DNA of 64,000 bases, from the NCBI GenBank assembly GCA_002840505.1, contig PHBC01000002.1:517544-581543 (forward strand), in the 5' to 3' direction. The translations under genes were made by a program, and so were the position numbers. How positions within the stretch are numbered: the first letter of the stretch is position 1; the number at the start of each line of letters is the position of its first letter. Positions 54,458-62,149 of this stretch are shown here, piece after piece. This DNA is from Deltaproteobacteria bacterium HGW-Deltaproteobacteria-2. GTDB taxonomy: Bacteria > Desulfobacterota > Syntrophia > Syntrophales > Smithellaceae. The notes below the pieces were generated by a model. It had not been told where the DNA came from and did not search any database. It worked only from the letters and a program-made list of their open reading frames with translations.

Positions 54458-54673
54458 TGAAAATACTGGATATACCCTAAAGGGCAACATGGCCGACCTA
54501 CGCCGGGAAGACAAAAGTGATGGATTTCTCTGGCTCCGCAGCGTGCCTTTAAAATCTAACAACATAAATCAGGCACGAATAAAATCCCTTGACATTAGCT
54601 TGGAAATAGTTTATTGGTTGAACCACTGGACCAATCAATCACAAGAAAAGAATGGTTTAGAAGGAGATGTACC

Positions 54674-55390
54674 ATGACAGCCAAGAAAGTCTTTTCCCAG
54701 CCGCTTACACGTTCACGTCTTCATGAGGAGATTGTGACAATTATCCAGAAGCAGATTATGAATGGCACGATTACTCCGGGAAGCAAATTGCCTCCCGAGC
54801 GGGAAATGGCGGAAACGTTCAGTGTCAACCGTGCTACGGTGCGTGAGGCATTACGTAAACTGGAGAATCTCGACCTTGTTGAAATCAGACATGGTGACGG
54901 ATTATATGTCAAAAATTATCTGGAAAGCGGTAATTTTGATCTTATCAAAGCCGCTTTAAATTTGGATAAGGGAACGGAAATAATCTTAAATATACTGGAG
55001 GCTCGCAGCTATGTAGTGCCGCAGATGGCTTACATGGCGGCGCAAAGGCGCACTTCCACTGATCTTGAAGACCTTCAGCAGGTCATCTCTAACGAAGACT
55101 TGAGCATGCTGGAACGGGATATCAAGATACATCAGTTAATCGCTCGTTCCACCCATAACTTGCTCTACACTATTTTTCTCAACTTCTTCAATCAGATTTT
55201 CCGCGACTACGGTTATCTTTATTTTGACAACAAAAAAAACGTTGAACGTTCACGTAAGTTTCATCAGGAAATTTATGAAGCCATCAAAAAAAAACAGGCT
55301 GGAGCGGCCAGACGGATTATGCAGGAAGTACTTCTTTATGCAGAGGAGGCCGTTAAAAAATCACTGACCGGCAAACAGAGAAAGGAGTAA
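54674..55390 (+). CDS. GntR/FadR-family transcriptional regulator (wHTH + FCD domain)
   Basis: LPPEREMAETFSVNRATVREALRKLENLDLVEIRHGDGLYV, followed by a helical FCD-like C-terminal domain. The ATG at 54674 has AAGGAGA upstream. The track ORF start (54614) runs into the repeat region. Confidence 0.8.
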   Translation: MTAKKVFSQPLTRSRLHEEIVTIIQKQIMNGTITPGSKLPPEREMAETFSVNRATVREALRKLENLDLVEIRHGDGLYVKNYLESGNFDLIKAALNLDKGTEIILNILEARSYVVPQMAYMAAQRRTSTDLEDLQQVISNEDLSMLERDIKIHQLIARSTHNLLYTIFLNFFNQIFRDYGYLYFDNKKNVERSRKFHQEIYEAIKKKQAGAARRIMQEVLLYAEEAVKKSLTGKQRKE

Positions 55391-55395
55391 ATGCC

Positions 55396-57039
55396 ATGCA
55401 GCGGTTTATTGAAAACCATACAGATGAACATTTTGATGTCATTGTTATCGGCGGAGGCATCAGCGGGGCTTCGGTGGCTTATGAGGCAGCCACGCGGGGG
55501 TTGAAAGTGGCCCTTCTGGAAAAAAATGATTTTTCCTGGGCCACATCGGCGGCCACGTCCAAGATGATTCACGGAGGCTTGCGATATTTGGTCAACGGCG
55601 AGATTATGTTGGTACGTGAGTCGCTGCGCGAGCGCCGGGTGCTGGAAAATATAGCTCCTAACTTCGTTTATCCCTGGCCAATGATGATGACCCATTACAA
55701 AACACCGCTTAAAAATAATAAATGGATCGTCAAAATAGGCATGCTGGTATATGATGCACTTTCCTACGATAAGAATTTTACCTGGGATGCCTGCAAGAAG
55801 ATTCCTTCGCATAGAACCATTTCCAAAAAGGAAGTTATGCAAAACGAGCCGCATGTTCGTTCTGAAGGACTCACCGGAGCGTCAATTTTCTGCGACTGTG
55901 TCAGTATCTTTCCCGAAAGGTTAACGCTGGCTTTCATCAAATCCGCCGCAGCATATGGCGCTAAAGTATCCAACTATACCCGGGTTGAAGGATTCATGAT
56001 GGGTTCCGAAAATAATGTAACCGGAGTAAAAGTAAGGGACCTTTTAAATAACAAAACATATGAAGTATCCGGCACAATTACAATTAACTGCGGCGGACCG
56101 TGGGCGGACATTGTTTTGGGTCTGGCTAAATCGAAAGGCGACGGCAGTTCAACATTGCGCAGGTCTGAAGGTATTCACATTATCACTTCGAAGCATCTGC
56201 TTTCCGGTAATTACACTGTTGCATCCATGACTCCATCCGGCCGTCATTTCTTCCTTATACCCTGGCGCAATCACACTCTCATAGGTACCACAGACAAACC
56301 TTTTACCGGAAATCCTGATGATTATCATGTCACTAGGGAAAGCATTATGGAACTGATAGACGATATCAATTCCTCTTTTAGTGACGGCAAACTAAGCTAC
56401 GCAGATGTAAAGCACACCTACGGAGGCCTGCGTCCTTTGGTAGAAGAAGATACGTCGGAAACTTATTCATCTTCCCGTAAGTACGAAATATACGACAACA
56501 AAAAAGATGGATTAAACGGTCTGATCACCGTTGAAGGCGGCAAATATACGACGAGCCGGAAACTGGCGGAAAACTGCCTCAATATTGTAGCATCCAAGAT
56601 GGAACAATCTCTGGGTCAAAGCGTTACCGACAAACAGTTTCTGACCGGATGTGAAATAAAAAATCTAGATGCCTTCTTATCCGATATTCAAAAAGAAAAT
56701 AGCGATTTCGGCAAGCCTACCATGAATTATCTCGGGCGTAACTATGGTACCGAATACGCTGAAATCATCAAGTTGGCGCGAGCGGACAAGACTTTATCTG
56801 AGACATTAAACGAAGATGGCGAAATTCTGGCACAGGTAGTTTATGCCGTGCGTGCAGAAATGGCGCGCACTTTAACCGATATAGTAATGCGCCGGACCGG
56901 TATCGGCACTCTCGGTAATCCCGGTGAGAATATATTGCGCAAAGTTGCCAACGTTGCCGCTAAGGAATTAAATTGGGATGCGAATAAAGTTGAGCAGGAA
57001 ATCTCAAACACTGTTAAATTGCTTACGCTGCCCAAGTGA
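55396..57039 (+). CDS. FAD-dependent glycerol-3-phosphate dehydrogenase-like oxidoreductase (GlpD/GlpA family)
   Basis: FDVIVIGGGISGASVAYEAATRGLKVALLEKNDFSWATSAATSKMIHGGLRYL is the canonical GlpD N-terminus. The protein is 547 aa. Confidence 0.85.
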   Translation: MQRFIENHTDEHFDVIVIGGGISGASVAYEAATRGLKVALLEKNDFSWATSAATSKMIHGGLRYLVNGEIMLVRESLRERRVLENIAPNFVYPWPMMMTHYKTPLKNNKWIVKIGMLVYDALSYDKNFTWDACKKIPSHRTISKKEVMQNEPHVRSEGLTGASIFCDCVSIFPERLTLAFIKSAAAYGAKVSNYTRVEGFMMGSENNVTGVKVRDLLNNKTYEVSGTITINCGGPWADIVLGLAKSKGDGSSTLRRSEGIHIITSKHLLSGNYTVASMTPSGRHFFLIPWRNHTLIGTTDKPFTGNPDDYHVTRESIMELIDDINSSFSDGKLSYADVKHTYGGLRPLVEEDTSETYSSSRKYEIYDNKKDGLNGLITVEGGKYTTSRKLAENCLNIVASKMEQSLGQSVTDKQFLTGCEIKNLDAFLSDIQKENSDFGKPTMNYLGRNYGTEYAEIIKLARADKTLSETLNEDGEILAQVVYAVRAEMARTLTDIVMRRTGIGTLGNPGENILRKVANVAAKELNWDANKVEQEISNTVKLLTLPK

Positions 57040-57108
57040 TTACCAAAAATATAAACATAAAAGCACCAGCGACGTACTGACAAATCGTGAGCCAAGGTAT
57101 AGGAGGAC

Positions 57109-58800
57109 ATGCTGATGAAATCAAAAATATTCCGGCCGGATTGGACGGAAAAATCGCCTGCGCCCGGTACATACAGATCCATTTTTAAATATGGTGATCC
57201 TCAACATTTCAAACATCCCAGTGATGCCTGGTACAGGATGATCAAACAGGATTTTCACTTAAGTGACACCGATTTTACCAGTAAAGTTAAAGAAGGACTT
57301 GAACAAGTTACTCTAAACCGTCCTGTAGATCTGAAACAGCAGCAGATGGAGGCCATACAAGCCATCGTAGGAAAAGAAAATGTTTCTCTGGATGATTACA
57401 GCCGTGTCAAATACGCTTCGGGGAAAACAACGGAAGAAATGTTGGAGCTTCGTCAGGGAATTATTCATGAAGTAGCAGACGTCGTAGTGCACCCGCGAGA
57501 CAAGCATGATGTTCAAAAAATTGTCGCTTACTGTGATAAAGAGGGAATCCCCGTTACGGTATTCAGCGCCGGTTCTTCCGTGAATTTCGGTTGCCGTCCG
57601 GTCACAGGAGGTATTTCTCTGGTAGTCAGCACTCATATGAACAAGGTTCTGGAAGTCAACGAACTCAATCAGACCGCCCGGGTGCAGCCGGGTATTTTCG
57701 GACCGGCTTATGAGGATGCTTTAAACAAAGCACCCGAACTTTTTGGCTCTAAACTGCGTTATACCTGCGGCCATTTCCCGCAGTCTTTCGAATATTCAAC
57801 AGTGGGAGGCTGGATTGTTACATTAGGTTCCGGACAGGCATCGACTTATTACGGCGACGCTTACGACATTGTGTTCAGTCAGGAATACGTGACTCCGGCA
57901 GGAACCTTTAAAACTCTGGACTATCCGGCTACCGCCACCGGTCCCAAAATAAACGATATAATGAAGGGTTCAGAGGGTGCCTTCGGCATTCTGGTTGAGG
58001 TAACAATGAAAATATTTCGTTACATGCCCGAAAATCGCGCGCGTTTCAGCTTTATGTATCCTACCTGGGACGCCGCTGTAAACGCCAGCCGCGAAATTAT
58101 GCAGTCCGAATTCGGCAAGCCTGCCATTTATCGTATTTCCGATCCCGAAGAAACAGACAGGGGGTTAAAGCTCTATGGCATGCCGGGCATTGTTGATAAA
58201 TTTTTGGTGCTGCGAGGATTTAAACCGATGCAGCGTTGTTTGAGTCTGGGCAATGTGGAAGGCGACAGAGATTACACGCGATTGGTAGCGCGCAAAATAA
58301 AGGCTATTGCCCGCCGCCACGGGGCAATGTCCCTGGGCAGTTATGCCGCACGCAAATGGGAAAAGACCCGCTACACTGAACCATATATGCGCGAGGATTT
58401 AGGTGACTATGGAATTTTGATTGATACGCTGGAAGCCGCTGTAACCTGGGATAATCTTCACCATCTGCATGAAGGTGTTCGCGCTTATATGAAAAGCCGG
58501 CCGGACACGATGTGTATGACGCATGCCTCGCACTTCTATCCGCAGGGCACAAATCTTTATTTTATTTTCATTGCTCACATGAACGATCCTGAGGAATACC
58601 GGAGATTTCAGCACGGCATCATCGACAGCATTCAAAAACACGGCGGATCATTGAGTCACCATCATGGAGTGGGACGCATGATCGGCCCCTGGATGGAAAC
58701 CCATCTGGGGAAAGAACAAATGGATGTTTTGCGCGTGTTGAAACGGCATTTCGATCCGCACAATATAATGAACCCCGGAGGTCAGCTGGGATTGGATTAA
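57109..58800 (+). CDS. FAD-linked oxidase, alkyldihydroxyacetonephosphate synthase (AGPS)-like
   Basis: The FAD-binding PCMH-type region is ADVVVHPRDKHDVQKIVAYCDKEGIPVTVFSAGSSV. The C-terminal SLSHHHGVGR matches the HHHGVG motif I associate with AGPS, rather than the GEHGIG of GlcD/D-lactate dehydrogenases. Confidence 0.7.
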   Translation: MLMKSKIFRPDWTEKSPAPGTYRSIFKYGDPQHFKHPSDAWYRMIKQDFHLSDTDFTSKVKEGLEQVTLNRPVDLKQQQMEAIQAIVGKENVSLDDYSRVKYASGKTTEEMLELRQGIIHEVADVVVHPRDKHDVQKIVAYCDKEGIPVTVFSAGSSVNFGCRPVTGGISLVVSTHMNKVLEVNELNQTARVQPGIFGPAYEDALNKAPELFGSKLRYTCGHFPQSFEYSTVGGWIVTLGSGQASTYYGDAYDIVFSQEYVTPAGTFKTLDYPATATGPKINDIMKGSEGAFGILVEVTMKIFRYMPENRARFSFMYPTWDAAVNASREIMQSEFGKPAIYRISDPEETDRGLKLYGMPGIVDKFLVLRGFKPMQRCLSLGNVEGDRDYTRLVARKIKAIARRHGAMSLGSYAARKWEKTRYTEPYMREDLGDYGILIDTLEAAVTWDNLHHLHEGVRAYMKSRPDTMCMTHASHFYPQGTNLYFIFIAHMNDPEEYRRFQHGIIDSIQKHGGSLSHHHGVGRMIGPWMETHLGKEQMDVLRVLKRHFDPHNIMNPGGQLGLD

Positions 58801-58828
58801 TAACTGTTAATCGGAGATAAGGTGAGAA

Positions 58829-58939
58829 CTTTGCATAACTACTTGTTTTGTCATCCCGAATCCCGACGAGTCGGGATGAGGAATCTTAAAGTAAAAAATT
58901 AGTTCAAAAAAAAGATTTCTCGCTTCGCTTCGAAATGAC
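58829..58939. repeat. Composite REP/MITE-like palindromic element (two inverted units)
   Basis: CTTTGCATAACT box (58829-58840); unit GTCATCCCGAATCCCGACGAGTCGGGATGAGGAATCTT (58850-58887); inverted unit AAGATTTCTCGCTTCGCTTCGAAATGAC (58912-58939). The outer ends GTCATYYCGA / TCGAAATGAC are inverted repeats. Confidence 0.65.
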
Positions 58940-58998
58940 ATTATACAAAGATCTCAAGGTATAAAAAATATGTTCAAGAAAACAAGTGAGGTAAAAAT

Positions 58999-60570
58999 AT
59001 GCCACAAGAAAATATTAAATCAAAAGAAATAATCCTGTCGATAGACGCAGGCACTCAGTCTATAAGGGCCGCCCTTATAGATACGGACGGAAACATACTG
59101 CATATCGTTAAAACACCAATTCAGCCTTACTATTCGGAACATCCCGGCTGGGCGGAACAACAACCGGATTACTATTGGGAGATGCTCTGTAAAACAACTG
59201 GCCAGCTCTTGCAAAAGCAGGAACATCTCAAGGCAAATATAGCAGGCGTTACGCTTACCACACAACGTGCCACAATGATTAATGTGGACAAAGACGGAAA
59301 AGCTCTTCGCCCGGCAATTACCTGGCTTGACCAGAGGAAGGCTGATTCATGTAAGATACTGCCTGGTGCTCTTCGTCCCGTGCTTAAGACCGTAAAACTG
59401 CTGGATACTGTGGAAAGTGCAATACAGGATTGCGAGGCGAACTGGATATGTCAGCAACAACCCGATATTTGGGAAAAGACACACAAGTTTTTGCATCTGT
59501 CCGGATTCTTCACTCACCGACTCACCGGTGAGTTCATTGATTCCGTGGGCAACAACATCGGCTATCTGCCGTTTAACAACAAGACATATCAATGGGCCGG
59601 AAAATACGATTTCAAATGGTGGCTATTTAAAATTGAGCAGGAAAAACTTCCTGCAATGATTAAGCCCTCAGAAATTTTGGGACAGATCACAAAAAAGGCG
59701 TCTTTGGAAACCGGTATACCGGCAGGATTGCCTGTCTTCGCGGCGGGATCGGACAAGGGCTGCGAAATACTCGGTTCGGGATGTCTCACGCCCGAAACCG
59801 GATGTCTAAGCTTCGGAACAATAGCAACTTTTGATGTGGCTACTCCCAAGTATGTCGAACTGCGTCCTATGATACCGCCATATCCTGCTTCAGTGCCGGA
59901 CACATACTACACGGAAGTTTCGATATTCCGCGGTTTCTGGATGGTCAGCTGGTTCAAGGAGGAATTCGGGCTTCAGGAGTGTATACTCGCCGAAAAAAAT
60001 AATGACGTGCCGGAAAAACTTTTTGATTCGTTGATTCAAAATGTGCCGGCCGGGTCCATGGGATTAATGCTCCAGCCTTACTGGACTCCGGGAATAGGTG
60101 CCGACTCTTACGCGAAAGGATCCATAATCGGTTTCGGTGATGTGCACAATCGCGCGTATCTCTATCGCGCCTTACTTGAAGGATTGATCTATGGACTGAG
60201 AGAAGGCGGAGAATTGACACAACGCAAAACAAAAGTGCCGGTAACAAAACTTAAAGTCTCCGGAGGAGGATCGCAAAGTGAAGCCGCAATGCAAATCACA
60301 GCGGATATATTTGGTATGGCTGCGGAGCGGCCGCACACTTTTGAAACATCCGCGCTGGGCGCGGCAATTGATGCCGCTGTGGGACTCAAACTTTATTCCG
60401 ACTTTCCATCAGCGGTCAGAAGCATGACCAGAACAGGAAAAGTATTTGAGCCGTCATTGAAAAATCATCAACTCTACGATAACCTCTATAAAAGAGTTTA
60501 CCTTAAAATGTACGGACAACTAAAACCGCTGTTTAAGGAAATCAAAGACATTACCGGTTATCCGAAGTAA
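58999..60570 (+). CDS. FGGY-family carbohydrate/polyol kinase
   Basis: The N-terminal motif is ILSIDAGTQSIRAALID. The C-terminal motif is VSGGGSQSEAAMQITADIFG. The protein is 523 aa. Confidence 0.85.
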   Translation: MPQENIKSKEIILSIDAGTQSIRAALIDTDGNILHIVKTPIQPYYSEHPGWAEQQPDYYWEMLCKTTGQLLQKQEHLKANIAGVTLTTQRATMINVDKDGKALRPAITWLDQRKADSCKILPGALRPVLKTVKLLDTVESAIQDCEANWICQQQPDIWEKTHKFLHLSGFFTHRLTGEFIDSVGNNIGYLPFNNKTYQWAGKYDFKWWLFKIEQEKLPAMIKPSEILGQITKKASLETGIPAGLPVFAAGSDKGCEILGSGCLTPETGCLSFGTIATFDVATPKYVELRPMIPPYPASVPDTYYTEVSIFRGFWMVSWFKEEFGLQECILAEKNNDVPEKLFDSLIQNVPAGSMGLMLQPYWTPGIGADSYAKGSIIGFGDVHNRAYLYRALLEGLIYGLREGGELTQRKTKVPVTKLKVSGGGSQSEAAMQITADIFGMAAERPHTFETSALGAAIDAAVGLKLYSDFPSAVRSMTRTGKVFEPSLKNHQLYDNLYKRVYLKMYGQLKPLFKEIKDITGYPK

Positions 60571-60640: not shown

Positions 60641-61867
60641 TTAGTTGCCCGACGTAATCTCGTAGATTGACAGCTTGTTGTCGCAGGCCGCGGCCAGCCG
60701 CCTGCCGTCCGGACTGACGGCCAGGCTTATGGGACCGGGATTGTTCTTGATCTCCTGAACCATCATTCCCGCTTCTATATCCCACACCGCTAACGTTAAA
60801 TGGGTATGAATCTGGCTCTTGGCGCCGAATAGATATTTCCCATCCCGGCTGAAGGCCAATGACCACACACGGGATTGCACCGGCAGTTCCTTAACCAATT
60901 TTCCGGTATCCACATTCCAAATGCGCACAGGATCATTGTTCCCTTGTGGGTATAAAATTGTGTCAGTGCTGCCGGTTGTTGTGCCGGTAGCCACCCACTT
61001 GCCGTTGGGGCTGATGGCTAAGGCTGTCGGATTATCAGTATGGATGTTGTCGATGCTGCGCAGGTACTTGCCGGACTTTGCATCCAAGAATAGTATCTTG
61101 GGCCGAAATCTATAACCGGACCCCGAAGCGACCAATTCTCCTTCGCCCAGAATCACGAATTTGCCATCGGGTGTGAATACCAGCGGCGTTGTGAAACGTG
61201 TTATCTCTTTCGGTTCATAGGACCAGGCAATTTGCCAGTTTTCTGTGCGATAGGCAATCACGATTCTCTTCTTACCGCCATGAACAACGACCAGCATCTT
61301 GCCATCCGGGCTAAAGCGCAGGGAGACAATGTCTACTTCTTGAGGTATGCCGGGCGTTATATGCGGAGCAATTAAAGTCGCCTGCGTGGTTCCATCAGCG
61401 ATTTTCCAGACATTGATAATTTTGAGGCCTGAGACCAAATATTGACCATCCGAACTGAAGGTTATGTTATCTAAGCCAAGGCCTCTGGCGCCTTGATTCA
61501 ACTGCTTTCGGATAGAAAGAGATGCTGCATCCCATATAACCACATCCGTTGGTAGACCCCCGGCTGTGGCAATTGACTTGCCATCTGGGCTCCAGGCCAC
61601 TGCCGTAATGTTATCGTATGTGTTCTCAGAGATCAGCCGAAGAATGTGATTCTTGGTCATGGCATGCCATCCTTTCATAAAGATGTTTTCGTCATCCGCA
61701 ACGGCATTGGTTGTAATAATTACAATTATTGCAACCAATATTAAAGGCAGTGTTCTACTTTTTTTAATTATTTTAGTTAGGAAAAGTTTTTTGCCATTCA
61801 GGCTAGTTTGATTTATCAAGAATAATTCTTTGACAGATGTCTTCTTACGATCAAAAGGGAAATACAT
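60641..61867 (-). CDS. Exported WD40/beta-propeller repeat protein
   Basis: Repeated …SPDGK…A(T/S)G… blades (WSPDGKSIATAG, FSSDGQYLVSG, FSPDGKMLVVV, ISPNGKWVATG, FSRDGKYLFGA, VSPDGRRLAAA) follow a signal/anchor (LPLILVAIIVIITTNAVA). The ATG at 61867 is preferred over the longer track ORF (to 62002). Confidence 0.7.
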   Translation of the reverse strand: MYFPFDRKKTSVKELFLINQTSLNGKKLFLTKIIKKSRTLPLILVAIIVIITTNAVADDENIFMKGWHAMTKNHILRLISENTYDNITAVAWSPDGKSIATAGGLPTDVVIWDAASLSIRKQLNQGARGLGLDNITFSSDGQYLVSGLKIINVWKIADGTTQATLIAPHITPGIPQEVDIVSLRFSPDGKMLVVVHGGKKRIVIAYRTENWQIAWSYEPKEITRFTTPLVFTPDGKFVILGEGELVASGSGYRFRPKILFLDAKSGKYLRSIDNIHTDNPTALAISPNGKWVATGTTTGSTDTILYPQGNNDPVRIWNVDTGKLVKELPVQSRVWSLAFSRDGKYLFGAKSQIHTHLTLAVWDIEAGMMVQEIKNNPGPISLAVSPDGRRLAAACDNKLSIYEITSGN

Positions 61868-62149
61868 GTTTTTTCTCCACGTTGAATTGTTTTTTATAAA
61901 AGCATTGATATTTTTTAATCTAAAAAACCCGTGAAACTTGTTCTGTGAAAACTTTTTGAAACAATTTTTTGAATTTATAATAGTATTCAATAAACAAATC
62001 AATATTTCATGTCAACTTAAATTCATTGAATATCGTTGTGCAAAATCACTTCTTTTTAACATTGACTTCGGATGTCCATTGCGCTAATAGAATCCACTCT
62101 TTTGCTTTTATAATCTCGTTGGGAATTTACCAGCGATACAGGAGGTCAT

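Follow-up and report, generated by a model that had tools for sequence, protein, structure and literature searches.

An operon joining an alkylglycerone-phosphate synthase homologue to a GlpD-like dehydrogenase and an FGGY kinase: a possible route for the breakdown of 1-substituted glycerols

The operon and its AGPS-like flavoenzyme

The operon described here lies in a 64,000-nucleotide stretch of DNA (the window) from Deltaproteobacteria bacterium HGW-Deltaproteobacteria-2, contig PHBC01000002.1, positions 517,544 to 581,543 of the forward strand. Open reading frame (ORF) analysis and searches with domain and family profiles located four co-directional genes on the + strand at positions 54674-60570. 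They encode a FadR-subfamily GntR regulator of 238 amino acids (54674..55390; Pfam GntR 72.6 bits, FCD 57 bits, FadR_C 47 bits), a GlpD-like FAD dehydrogenase of 547 amino acids (55396..57039; DAO 178 bits and DAO_C 82 bits), a flavoenzyme of 563 amino acids resembling alkylglycerone-phosphate synthase (AGPS; 57109..58800; Pfam FAD_binding_4 and FAD-oxidase_C) and an FGGY kinase of 523 amino acids (58999..60570; FGGY_N/FGGY_C). An earlier reading of the letters without database searches, called here the sequence-only reading, had claimed these four genes; all of them are present and their domains were confirmed. The names carried by close relatives of the window proteins indicate a Smithella/Smithellaceae-type syntroph as the source, and the host genome, of 3.28 Mb, is 98% complete.

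To our knowledge AGPS is the only enzyme known to form the ether bond of eukaryotic and myxobacterial ether lipids, and it uses its flavin for non-redox covalent catalysis. The results presented below showed that a large and highly conserved bacterial and archaeal sister group, to which the window flavoenzyme belongs, keeps the AGPS machinery but is paired with a kinase and a dehydrogenase. This implies that the chemistry is put to a further use, as yet uncharacterised.

The best matches of the flavoenzyme in the Protein Data Bank (PDB) were the AGPS of Dictyostelium (2uuu; E 5e-70, 240 bits) and that of guinea pig (4bby; 186 bits), whereas structures of GlcD and D-lactate dehydrogenase score only about 80 bits. 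The motif SLSHHHGVGR is present, and residues R342, Y484 and H517-H519 align with guinea-pig Arg419, Tyr578 and His615-617, the tyrosine column being fixed by the Y578F variant 4bca. These residues are invariant among 40 relatives from many phyla, in an alignment with a mean column identity of 68%, and so are several residues of the N-terminal extension. An AlphaFold model of the protein (predicted local distance difference test score, pLDDT, 86.8; predicted template modelling score, pTM, 0.85) was compared with known structures by Foldseek. The top 37 PDB matches were all AGPS chains, with template modelling (TM) scores of 0.72-0.82 on the query length over 512-581 aligned columns, and D-lactate dehydrogenases ranked after them at about 0.68. 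Because the model matches AGPS over 512-581 columns, the N-terminal extension is the AGPS N-terminal domain. The flavoenzyme is a true homologue of AGPS in sequence, in fold and in its catalytic Arg/Tyr/HHH set. The sequence-only reading had therefore been right to place it with AGPS and not with GlcD, and the alignment with solved AGPS enzymes that it had recommended found the catalytic residues intact.

Two groups of AGPS-like enzymes

Homology to AGPS is shared by two groups of proteins that databases name alike, as alkyldihydroxyacetonephosphate synthase, and that were separated here by phylogeny and by gene context. Among 1.84 billion representatives scanned with HMMER, 772 relatives were found with E < 1e-30, of which 123 entered a first tree; a second tree contained 226 rows. 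In addition, 240 loci with an AGPS-like gene were gathered from three scans and their neighbouring ORFs were clustered, and at 223 loci the neighbours within 4 kb of the AGPS-like gene were scored. In the first tree the window protein falls in a 13-row clade (support 100 in the Shimodaira-Hasegawa-like approximate likelihood ratio test, SH-aLRT). Both solved AGPS enzymes are in a separate 17-row clade (100), joined there by an acyltransferase-AGPS fusion protein, and YgcU of Escherichia coli forms the outermost clade. In the second tree both solved AGPS enzymes and all 30 of the loci with a PF01553 acyltransferase neighbour fall in one clade of 46 rows (support 98), which has zero loci of GlpD, FGGY or DAGK context and does not include the window protein.

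The contexts exclude each other in the same way. A GlpD-like gene together with an FGGY kinase gene was found at 81 of the 223 loci, a GlpD-like gene only at 38, an FGGY gene only at 13, a DAGK_cat/YegS lipid kinase gene at 8 (6 of these with a GlpD-like gene) and a GlpD-like gene with a short-chain dehydrogenase/reductase (SDR) at 2. A PF01553 acyltransferase was present at 30 loci, 9 of which also have an enzyme of the 3-hydroxy-3-methylglutaryl-CoA (HMG-CoA) reductase family and 6 of those 9 an SDR as well. One locus has the SDR and the HMG-CoA-reductase-family enzyme only, and the remaining 50 have none of the scored families. At none of the 223 loci does an acyltransferase neighbour occur together with a GlpD-like, FGGY or DAGK one. 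No acyltransferase or reductase was found in the operon at any of the 142 loci of GlpD/kinase context, and no acyltransferase, alcohol-forming reductase or alkyl-dihydroxyacetone-phosphate reductase is present beside the window gene in its operon.

The sequences of the two groups have 74 conserved columns in common, the catalytic set included, and differ at a few near-invariant positions. The residue equivalent to guinea-pig Asp303 is Asp in all 46 members of the AGPS clade and Gln in 141 of the 142 sequences of the GlpD/kinase group (Q225 in the window protein). Further switches from the AGPS clade to the GlpD/kinase group are Met321 to Gln, Val/Ser527 to Thr (142 of 142) and Lys508 to Arg. 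Since YgcU also carries Gln at both the Asp303 and the Met321 positions, the Asp/Met state appears to be a specialised feature that belongs to the biosynthetic clade. The window flavoenzyme is not an orthologue of the ether-lipid synthase. For annotation, the neighbours (acyltransferase and SDR, or GlpD-like and kinase) and the residue at guinea-pig position 303 (Asp or Gln) can be used to split probable synthases from the orphan group.

Within the orphan group the association with the dehydrogenase and the kinase is recurrent. A GlpD-like gene accompanies 129 of the 240 AGPS-like loci, and orthologues of the window kinase (40-84% identity) adjoin the AGPS-like gene at 34 of the first 80 loci and at 97 of the 240 overall. 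In four independent clusters of proteins of about 1100 amino acids (P0138, P0150, P0160, P0203) the AGPS-like domain is fused to DAO and DAO_C. These fusions, from Fidelibacterota, Calditrichota and other uncultured lineages known from metagenome-assembled genomes (MAGs) (e.g. L086:6001-9321, L091:6001-9311), arose at least three times on the 123-sequence tree, which argues for consecutive steps or a complex of the two enzymes. In Bacillota, Thermotogota, Caldisericota and Spirochaetota the gene order is GlpD-like, Pyr_redox_2 protein, DUF1667 protein, FGGY kinase and AGPS-like; a trio of dehydrogenase, Pyr_redox_2 and DUF1667 proteins is known as a glycerol-3-phosphate (G3P) dehydrogenase complex of Thermococcus. 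Inside the window's own clade, a NUDIX hydrolase domain is fused N-terminally to an AGPS-like protein with 41% identity to that of the window (P0129, P0144; L168:6001-8087, Leptonemataceae). AGPS-like genes are also found in archaea, in Conexivisphaerales and Nitrososphaerales (L091, L099) and in Heimdallarchaeota (L127, L132, L164); both Thermoproteota loci (L091, L099) have the order AGPS-like, GlpD-like and DAGK_cat/YegS lipid kinase.

The true AGPS clade has operons of its own. In a Verrucomicrobiales MAG (L122:4049-8126) an HMG-CoA-reductase-family gene (331 bits) is followed by a PF01553 acyltransferase, a true-clade AGPS and an SDR. This order is repeated at L104, L112, L142, L152 and L154, the lineages being Verrucomicrobiota, Calditrichota and Ignavibacteria. 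Loci of Planctomycetota (L135) and Halothiobacillaceae (L115) have the first three genes without the SDR, and those of Acidobacteriota the acyltransferase and AGPS only. To judge from its gene content, the four-gene operon looks like a complete bacterial set for ether-lipid biosynthesis, in which the reduction of acyl-CoA to the fatty alcohol could fall to the HMG-CoA-reductase homologue.

The two partners of the window flavoenzyme also depart from the glycerol enzymes they resemble. The dehydrogenase, whose top PDB match is GlpO 2rgh (232 bits), scores 309 bits with the NCBIfam GlpD model, under its cut-off of 360, so that its description as a canonical GlpD was overstated. For the kinase the best NCBIfam model is the xylulokinase XylB (246 bits, cut-off 380), and the GlpK model gives 150 bits against a cut-off of 590. 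The glycerol-binding residues of GlpK, which we take from the E. coli structure to be R83, E84, W103, Y135, D245 and F270, were mapped on the E. coli glpK sequence and compared with 35 cluster-linked kinases. The equivalents of R, W and D, which are the general FGGY Arg, Trp and catalytic Asp, are kept; the E84 position is A, D, S or N, and Y135 and F270 are not kept. Judged by these profiles and residues, the window enzyme is an FGGY kinase of a distinct specificity group and not GlpK, and the dehydrogenase is not the G3P dehydrogenase of this organism. Canonical glpK (766 bits), followed by glpA, glpB and glpC, is located on another contig (C2), all four above their NCBIfam equivalog cut-offs. 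That operon (G000:C2:591-8774, L082) is followed by genes for an LsrF-like aldolase/thiolase (NF006081, 510 bits) and a zinc alcohol dehydrogenase. With this separate set in the same genome, the window cluster was rejected as a supply line from glycerol to dihydroxyacetone phosphate (DHAP): a dedicated line for a central metabolite is unlikely because the genome owns glpK-glpABC and because the cluster kinase and dehydrogenase stay below the GlpK and GlpD cut-offs.

Regulation, substrate and possible reaction

The regulator gene starts at ATG 54674, as the sequence-only reading had it. The upstream regions of the window and four relatives (L001, L002, L003, L006) were aligned, and an AAGGAG ribosome-binding site and this ATG are conserved in five of five. 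A longer ORF from a TTG at 54614 was discarded as the start, as it begins inside the conserved operator and the ribosome-binding site with ATG 54674 is conserved instead. CTTGAC is invariant across the five regions, and in the window it reads TTGACA (54589..54594, + strand), a candidate -35 box for the operon promoter. The candidate operator ATTGGTTGAACCACTGGACCAAT (54613..54635, + strand) comprises, within 23 bp, a FadR-type palindrome TGGTT-G-AACCA with outer ATTGGT/ACCAAT arms. It overlaps the -10 region and is largely invariant in all five regions. The layout of this putative operator over the promoter is that of an autoregulated repressor, and the operon's own FadR-type GntR protein is predicted to bind there and to repress it. 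The exact 23-mer occurs once in the 3.28-Mb genome, and the two further exact copies of its 11-bp core, both intragenic, were taken as chance. In a genome-wide search for a regulon the sole similar intergenic site was one preceding a paralogous regulator gene. This paralogue, a FadR-type GntR protein 34% identical to the window regulator, has the very similar operator ATTGGTACTACCATTGGACCAAT (G000:C10:428074-432353; L246:4074-8353). Its gene lies about 90 kb upstream of the window and is followed by that for a 1108-amino-acid fusion of a radical-SAM activase domain with a glycyl radical enzyme.

Of the first 80 related loci, 23 have a GntR/FCD gene at the head of the operon, and in other lineages GntR/UTRA or TetR regulators take the same position. 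When 61 genomes from the same order were sampled, 6 of them, the window's own genome included, had a match at 53% identity or more, and this patchy distribution marks the module as an accessory trait. Organisms in culture that carry it include Clostridium sediminicola, Haloimpatiens sp. and strain NaphS2. The local GntR/FadR, GntR/UTRA or TetR regulators, the conserved operator and the patchy distribution would fit a catabolic style of operon.

The 198-bp spacer between the AGPS-like and kinase genes (58801-58998) houses a palindromic repeat resembling a repetitive extragenic palindromic (REP) element or a miniature inverted-repeat transposable element (MITE), at 58829..58939 and without assigned strand. 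Its hairpin (58851-58879) has 12-nt arms that are 92% complementary, which bears out the REP element noted earlier from the letters. No terminator-like site was found on the + strand of the spacer. Consensus scans for promoters and terminators gave hits no commoner than in shuffled sequence and were not used as evidence. In the relatives L001 (7737-9071), L003 and L005 the same spacer is filled by a DUF362 gene that is missing from the window. DUF362 was not counted as a component of the system: a 42%-identical paralogue (G000:C9:342168-343472) adjoins a DUF1893 gene, in an unrelated context. The operon is flanked by a U32/TrhP-like gene, a WD40 protein gene and leuB. The WD40 protein, a bacterial beta-propeller of 453 amino acids (60641-62002, - strand), is encoded convergently with the kinase, an adjacency that is not kept at other loci.

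Hints on the substrate come from the neighbours at other loci. In the 8 loci with a DAGK_cat/YegS lipid kinase this protein occupies the kinase slot; among them are loci of Nitrososphaerales and Conexivisphaerales archaea, of Flavobacteriaceae, of Chitinophagales and of a Bacillota genome. Elsewhere the module has as a neighbour a fatty-acid-binding protein (DegV), a lipase (GDSL), a type I phosphodiesterase or else a calcineurin-like phosphoesterase. In Dehalococcoidia (L191, L220, L223, L227, L229) the GlpD-like/AGPS-like/FGGY trio comes after two genes that point the same way, one for a calcineurin-like phosphoesterase of about 459 amino acids and one for a 179-amino-acid protein with no Pfam match. 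In Pseudomonas aeruginosa, a trio of the same kind is induced along with a phospholipase C and a YegS lipid kinase (PMC8151288). The clusters of neighbours from the 240 loci held no transporter regularly linked to the module, and a compact operon core of this kind would therefore suit a substrate that is membrane-resident or endogenous. Taken together, these hints would point to a lipid; they are consistent but thin.

The reading that we tentatively prefer, as possible rather than probable, is that the operon is inducible and serves to degrade or salvage a 1-substituted glycerol. Most plausibly this would be a monoradyl-glycerol lipid (a 1-O-alkylglycerol or a monoacylglycerol) that is phosphorylated, oxidised and then freed of its C1 group. 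The FGGY kinase would phosphorylate the free primary hydroxyl to give a 1-substituted glycerol-3-phosphate, and the GlpD-like dehydrogenase would oxidise C2 to give the 1-substituted dihydroxyacetone phosphate. The flavoenzyme, as its conserved catalytic residues suggest, would then apply AGPS chemistry, with Tyr-assisted enolisation, a covalent adduct at flavin N5 and expulsion of the group on C1. Once water or some other small nucleophile had entered, DHAP would be released with the freed alcohol or acid.

One specific form of this proposal, which we regard as unlikely, is an oxygen-independent cleavage of alkylglycerol ethers, where the AGPS-type flavoenzyme would run backwards on alkyl-DHAP with water to yield a fatty alcohol and DHAP. 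Such a route may be redox-neutral, the GlpD-like flavoprotein, which is sometimes fused to the AGPS-like enzyme, taking electrons from alkyl-G3P and handing them back to DHAP; if true, it would suit fermenters and syntrophs that have no electron acceptor. In the parts of the literature covered here, the sole enzyme found to cleave ether lipids is the animal alkylglycerol monooxygenase, which depends on O2 and tetrahydrobiopterin. If the substrate were indeed an alkylglycerol, the degradation or recycling of ether lipids without O2 in sediments, digesters and guts would have an explanation in this module, and the interpretation of ether lipids as persistent biomarkers would be affected.

Several observations weigh against a degradative role on a lipid. 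We know of no substrate, product or phenotype for any member of the module. FGGY kinases normally take small polar sugars and polyols and not lipids, and the comparison with the residues of E. coli GlpK shows that the kinases are not GlpK and gives no substrate. An alkoxide is a poor leaving group, and the conversion by AGPS toward DHAP with water is known only as a side reaction. The lipid-related neighbours are few (about a dozen in 240 loci) and of generic families. The clustering of the relative YgcU with genes for electron transfer flavoprotein (ETF) and FixCX hints at a true redox role for at least that branch. Finally, deletion of the related operon PA3026-PA3024 of Pseudomonas aeruginosa gave no phenotype on glycerol or on Biolog plates (Int J Mol Sci 2021, PMC8151288).

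In an alternative reading the substrate is not a lipid. The kinase and the GlpD-like dehydrogenase would then catabolise a polyol or polyol phosphate as EryA and EryB do, and the AGPS-like protein would act as a flavin dehydrogenase or oxidase, or in an isomerase-like manner, on a ketose phosphate. The usual preference of FGGY kinases for small polyols and ketoses, and xylulokinase as the top family of the window kinase (246 bits), favour this alternative, as does the company of YgcU and YgcE. An SDR, two major facilitator superfamily (MFS) transporters, ETF and FixCX give that cluster the look of one for sugar-alcohol oxidation with a redox YgcU. However, YgcU is only 27% identical to the window protein, has no N-terminal domain and belongs to the outermost clade, whereas in the module itself the AGPS-specific Arg, Tyr and HHH loop and the AGPS N-terminal domain are strictly conserved. 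At some loci an ATP-binding cassette (ABC) transporter, an enolase-superfamily enzyme or a glycoside hydrolase does adjoin the module; yet neither a transporter nor a sugar-phosphate isomerase is regularly linked to it in the 240 loci, and a DAGK-type lipid kinase can occupy the kinase slot. We therefore hold non-lipid polyol catabolism to be rather unlikely, although it is the best of the alternatives. The second proposal of the sequence-only reading, a catabolic pathway in which the AGPS-like enzyme is an oxidase or dehydrogenase, survives in its first half, since catabolism fits the context better; against the simple redox role, the conserved AGPS set argues for a substitution on a DHAP derivative.

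Ether-lipid biosynthesis is favoured by the intact catalytic residues and fold of AGPS. In one variant the GlpD-like enzyme would oxidise lysophosphatidic acid to acyl-DHAP, replacing the DHAP acyltransferase, and the AGPS-like enzyme would swap the acyl group for a fatty alcohol. The fusions of the two proteins suit consecutive steps of this kind, and alkylglycerol lipids are reported to be made by some sulfate reducers and other anaerobes. A route from glycerol to alkylglycerone phosphate has also been proposed in silico for PA3026-PA3024 by the authors of the P. aeruginosa study (PMC8151288). The window protein, however, is outside the clade that contains the characterised AGPS enzymes and all the acyltransferase, SDR and HMG-CoA-reductase-family contexts, and it has Gln in place of Asp303. 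No locus of GlpD/kinase context has a reductase or acyltransferase in its operon, and a search of the genome for a fatty acyl-CoA reductase, as advised with the initial reading, gave no strong match (best PF07993, 57 bits). The local repressors of the substrate-responsive type and the patchy distribution speak against a biosynthetic role as well, and homologous modules are present in E. coli and P. aeruginosa, which are not known to make ether lipids. Synthesis of ether lipids is thus improbable, and the first proposal of the sequence-only reading, in which the cluster fed such synthesis with DHAP, is not supported; the genome has its own glpK-glpABC, and DHAP needs no dedicated supply. The premise behind that proposal, that the anaerobic route to ether lipids was unresolved, is dated, a preprint having treated the plsA/plsR-related Ger enzyme of Thermotoga as the characterised anaerobic route.

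An auxiliary glycerol/G3P module, in which the kinase and the GlpD-like enzyme would indeed work on glycerol and G3P and the AGPS-like protein would be an electron sink or would process DHAP, either as such or, in metabolite repair, once damaged or formed as a side product, is the least probable of all: the Pyr_redox_2 and DUF1667 partners of the dehydrogenase in Bacillota, Thermotogota and Spirochaetota and the GlpK/GlpD redundancy assumed by the P. aeruginosa study authors (PMC8151288) favour it, but the same genome has the full canonical glpK-glpABC set, the window kinase lacks three of the GlpK glycerol contacts, and deletion of the P. aeruginosa operon left growth on glycerol unaffected (PMC8151288).

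Comparison with known systems

Canonical glycerol catabolism differs from the window system in both of its enzymes, the equivalog scores of GlpK and GlpD and the full set of GlpK glycerol residues being absent here. For mycobacterial Rv2249c-Rv2252, a further candidate for comparison, the literature search gave incidental mentions only. In the erythritol catabolism of Brucella and rhizobia the FGGY kinase EryA and then the GlpD homologue EryB act on the polyol, so that the Ery pathway has a kinase and a GlpD-family dehydrogenase like the window; it has no AGPS-like enzyme. Conversely, the racemase/isomerases EryC, EryH and EryI were not found in the window operon or its flanks, and no isomerase is among the annotated recurrent neighbour families, the smaller neighbour clusters being only partly annotated.

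The ygc cluster of E. coli (YgcU, YgcE, YgcP and YgcQR/NO; K-12 ygcN-ygcE, L081:3658-14375) contains relatives of two of the window proteins. YgcU, with 27% identity and 484 amino acids, is without the N-terminal domain, but the three motifs (Arg, Tyr and HHH) are retained and, as in the window enzyme, Gln stands where AGPS has Asp303; the FGGY kinase YgcE is 31% identical to the window kinase over its full length. The cluster has no GlpD-like gene and includes instead the SDR, ETF, FixCX, a GlpP-like antiterminator and the two MFS transporters. A literature search on ygcU found no functional study. YgcU, clustered with YgcE, is thereby an uncharacterised member, in a model organism, of the wider kin of this module.

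The AGPS enzymes themselves, also called alkyldihydroxyacetonephosphate synthase (ADPS; EC 2.5.1.26; 2uuu, 4bby and Myxococcus xanthus MXAN_1676), have the same three-domain fold as the window protein, N-terminal domain included (TM about 0.8), and the equivalents of their catalytic Arg419, Tyr578 and His615-617 are kept in it. The window enzyme differs from them by an identity of 27-28%, by its separate and well-supported clade and by the switch from Asp303 to Gln. Its partners are a dehydrogenase and a kinase, whereas those of AGPS are an acyltransferase, a fatty alcohol-forming reductase and an SDR; in M. xanthus MXAN_1676 adjoins a FAR-GNPAT fusion. Hence, by the strict definition of EC 2.5.1.26, the window enzyme agrees with AGPS in domains, fold and catalytic residues and departs from it at Asp303, in its place in the tree and in its partner genes.

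The P. aeruginosa genes PA3026-PA3024 encode a predicted alkylglycerone-phosphate synthase (an FAD-binding oxidoreductase), a GlpD homologue and an FGGY kinase, all uncharacterised (PMC8151288). The AraC regulator GliR (PA3027) activates them more than 100-fold, together with the phospholipase C PA3464 and the YegS-type lipid kinase PA3023 (PMC8151288). The likeness, drawn from gene content in the published description, is that of a gene trio with a dedicated adjacent regulator, as in the window, where the three genes are likewise adjacent and co-directional. The differences lie in the AraC-type activator in place of a FadR-type GntR protein, in the gene order, in the lipid kinase PA3023 after the trio and in the aerobic host. 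The trio as such is thus already known from P. aeruginosa, with its function uncharacterised (PMC8151288). To that description the present analysis adds the AGPS-like::GlpD-like fusions, a strict mutual exclusion of contexts that agrees with the tree, the use of Asp303 or Gln as a diagnostic, the finding that a lipid kinase stands in for the FGGY kinase in several lineages, and the operator of the window operon.

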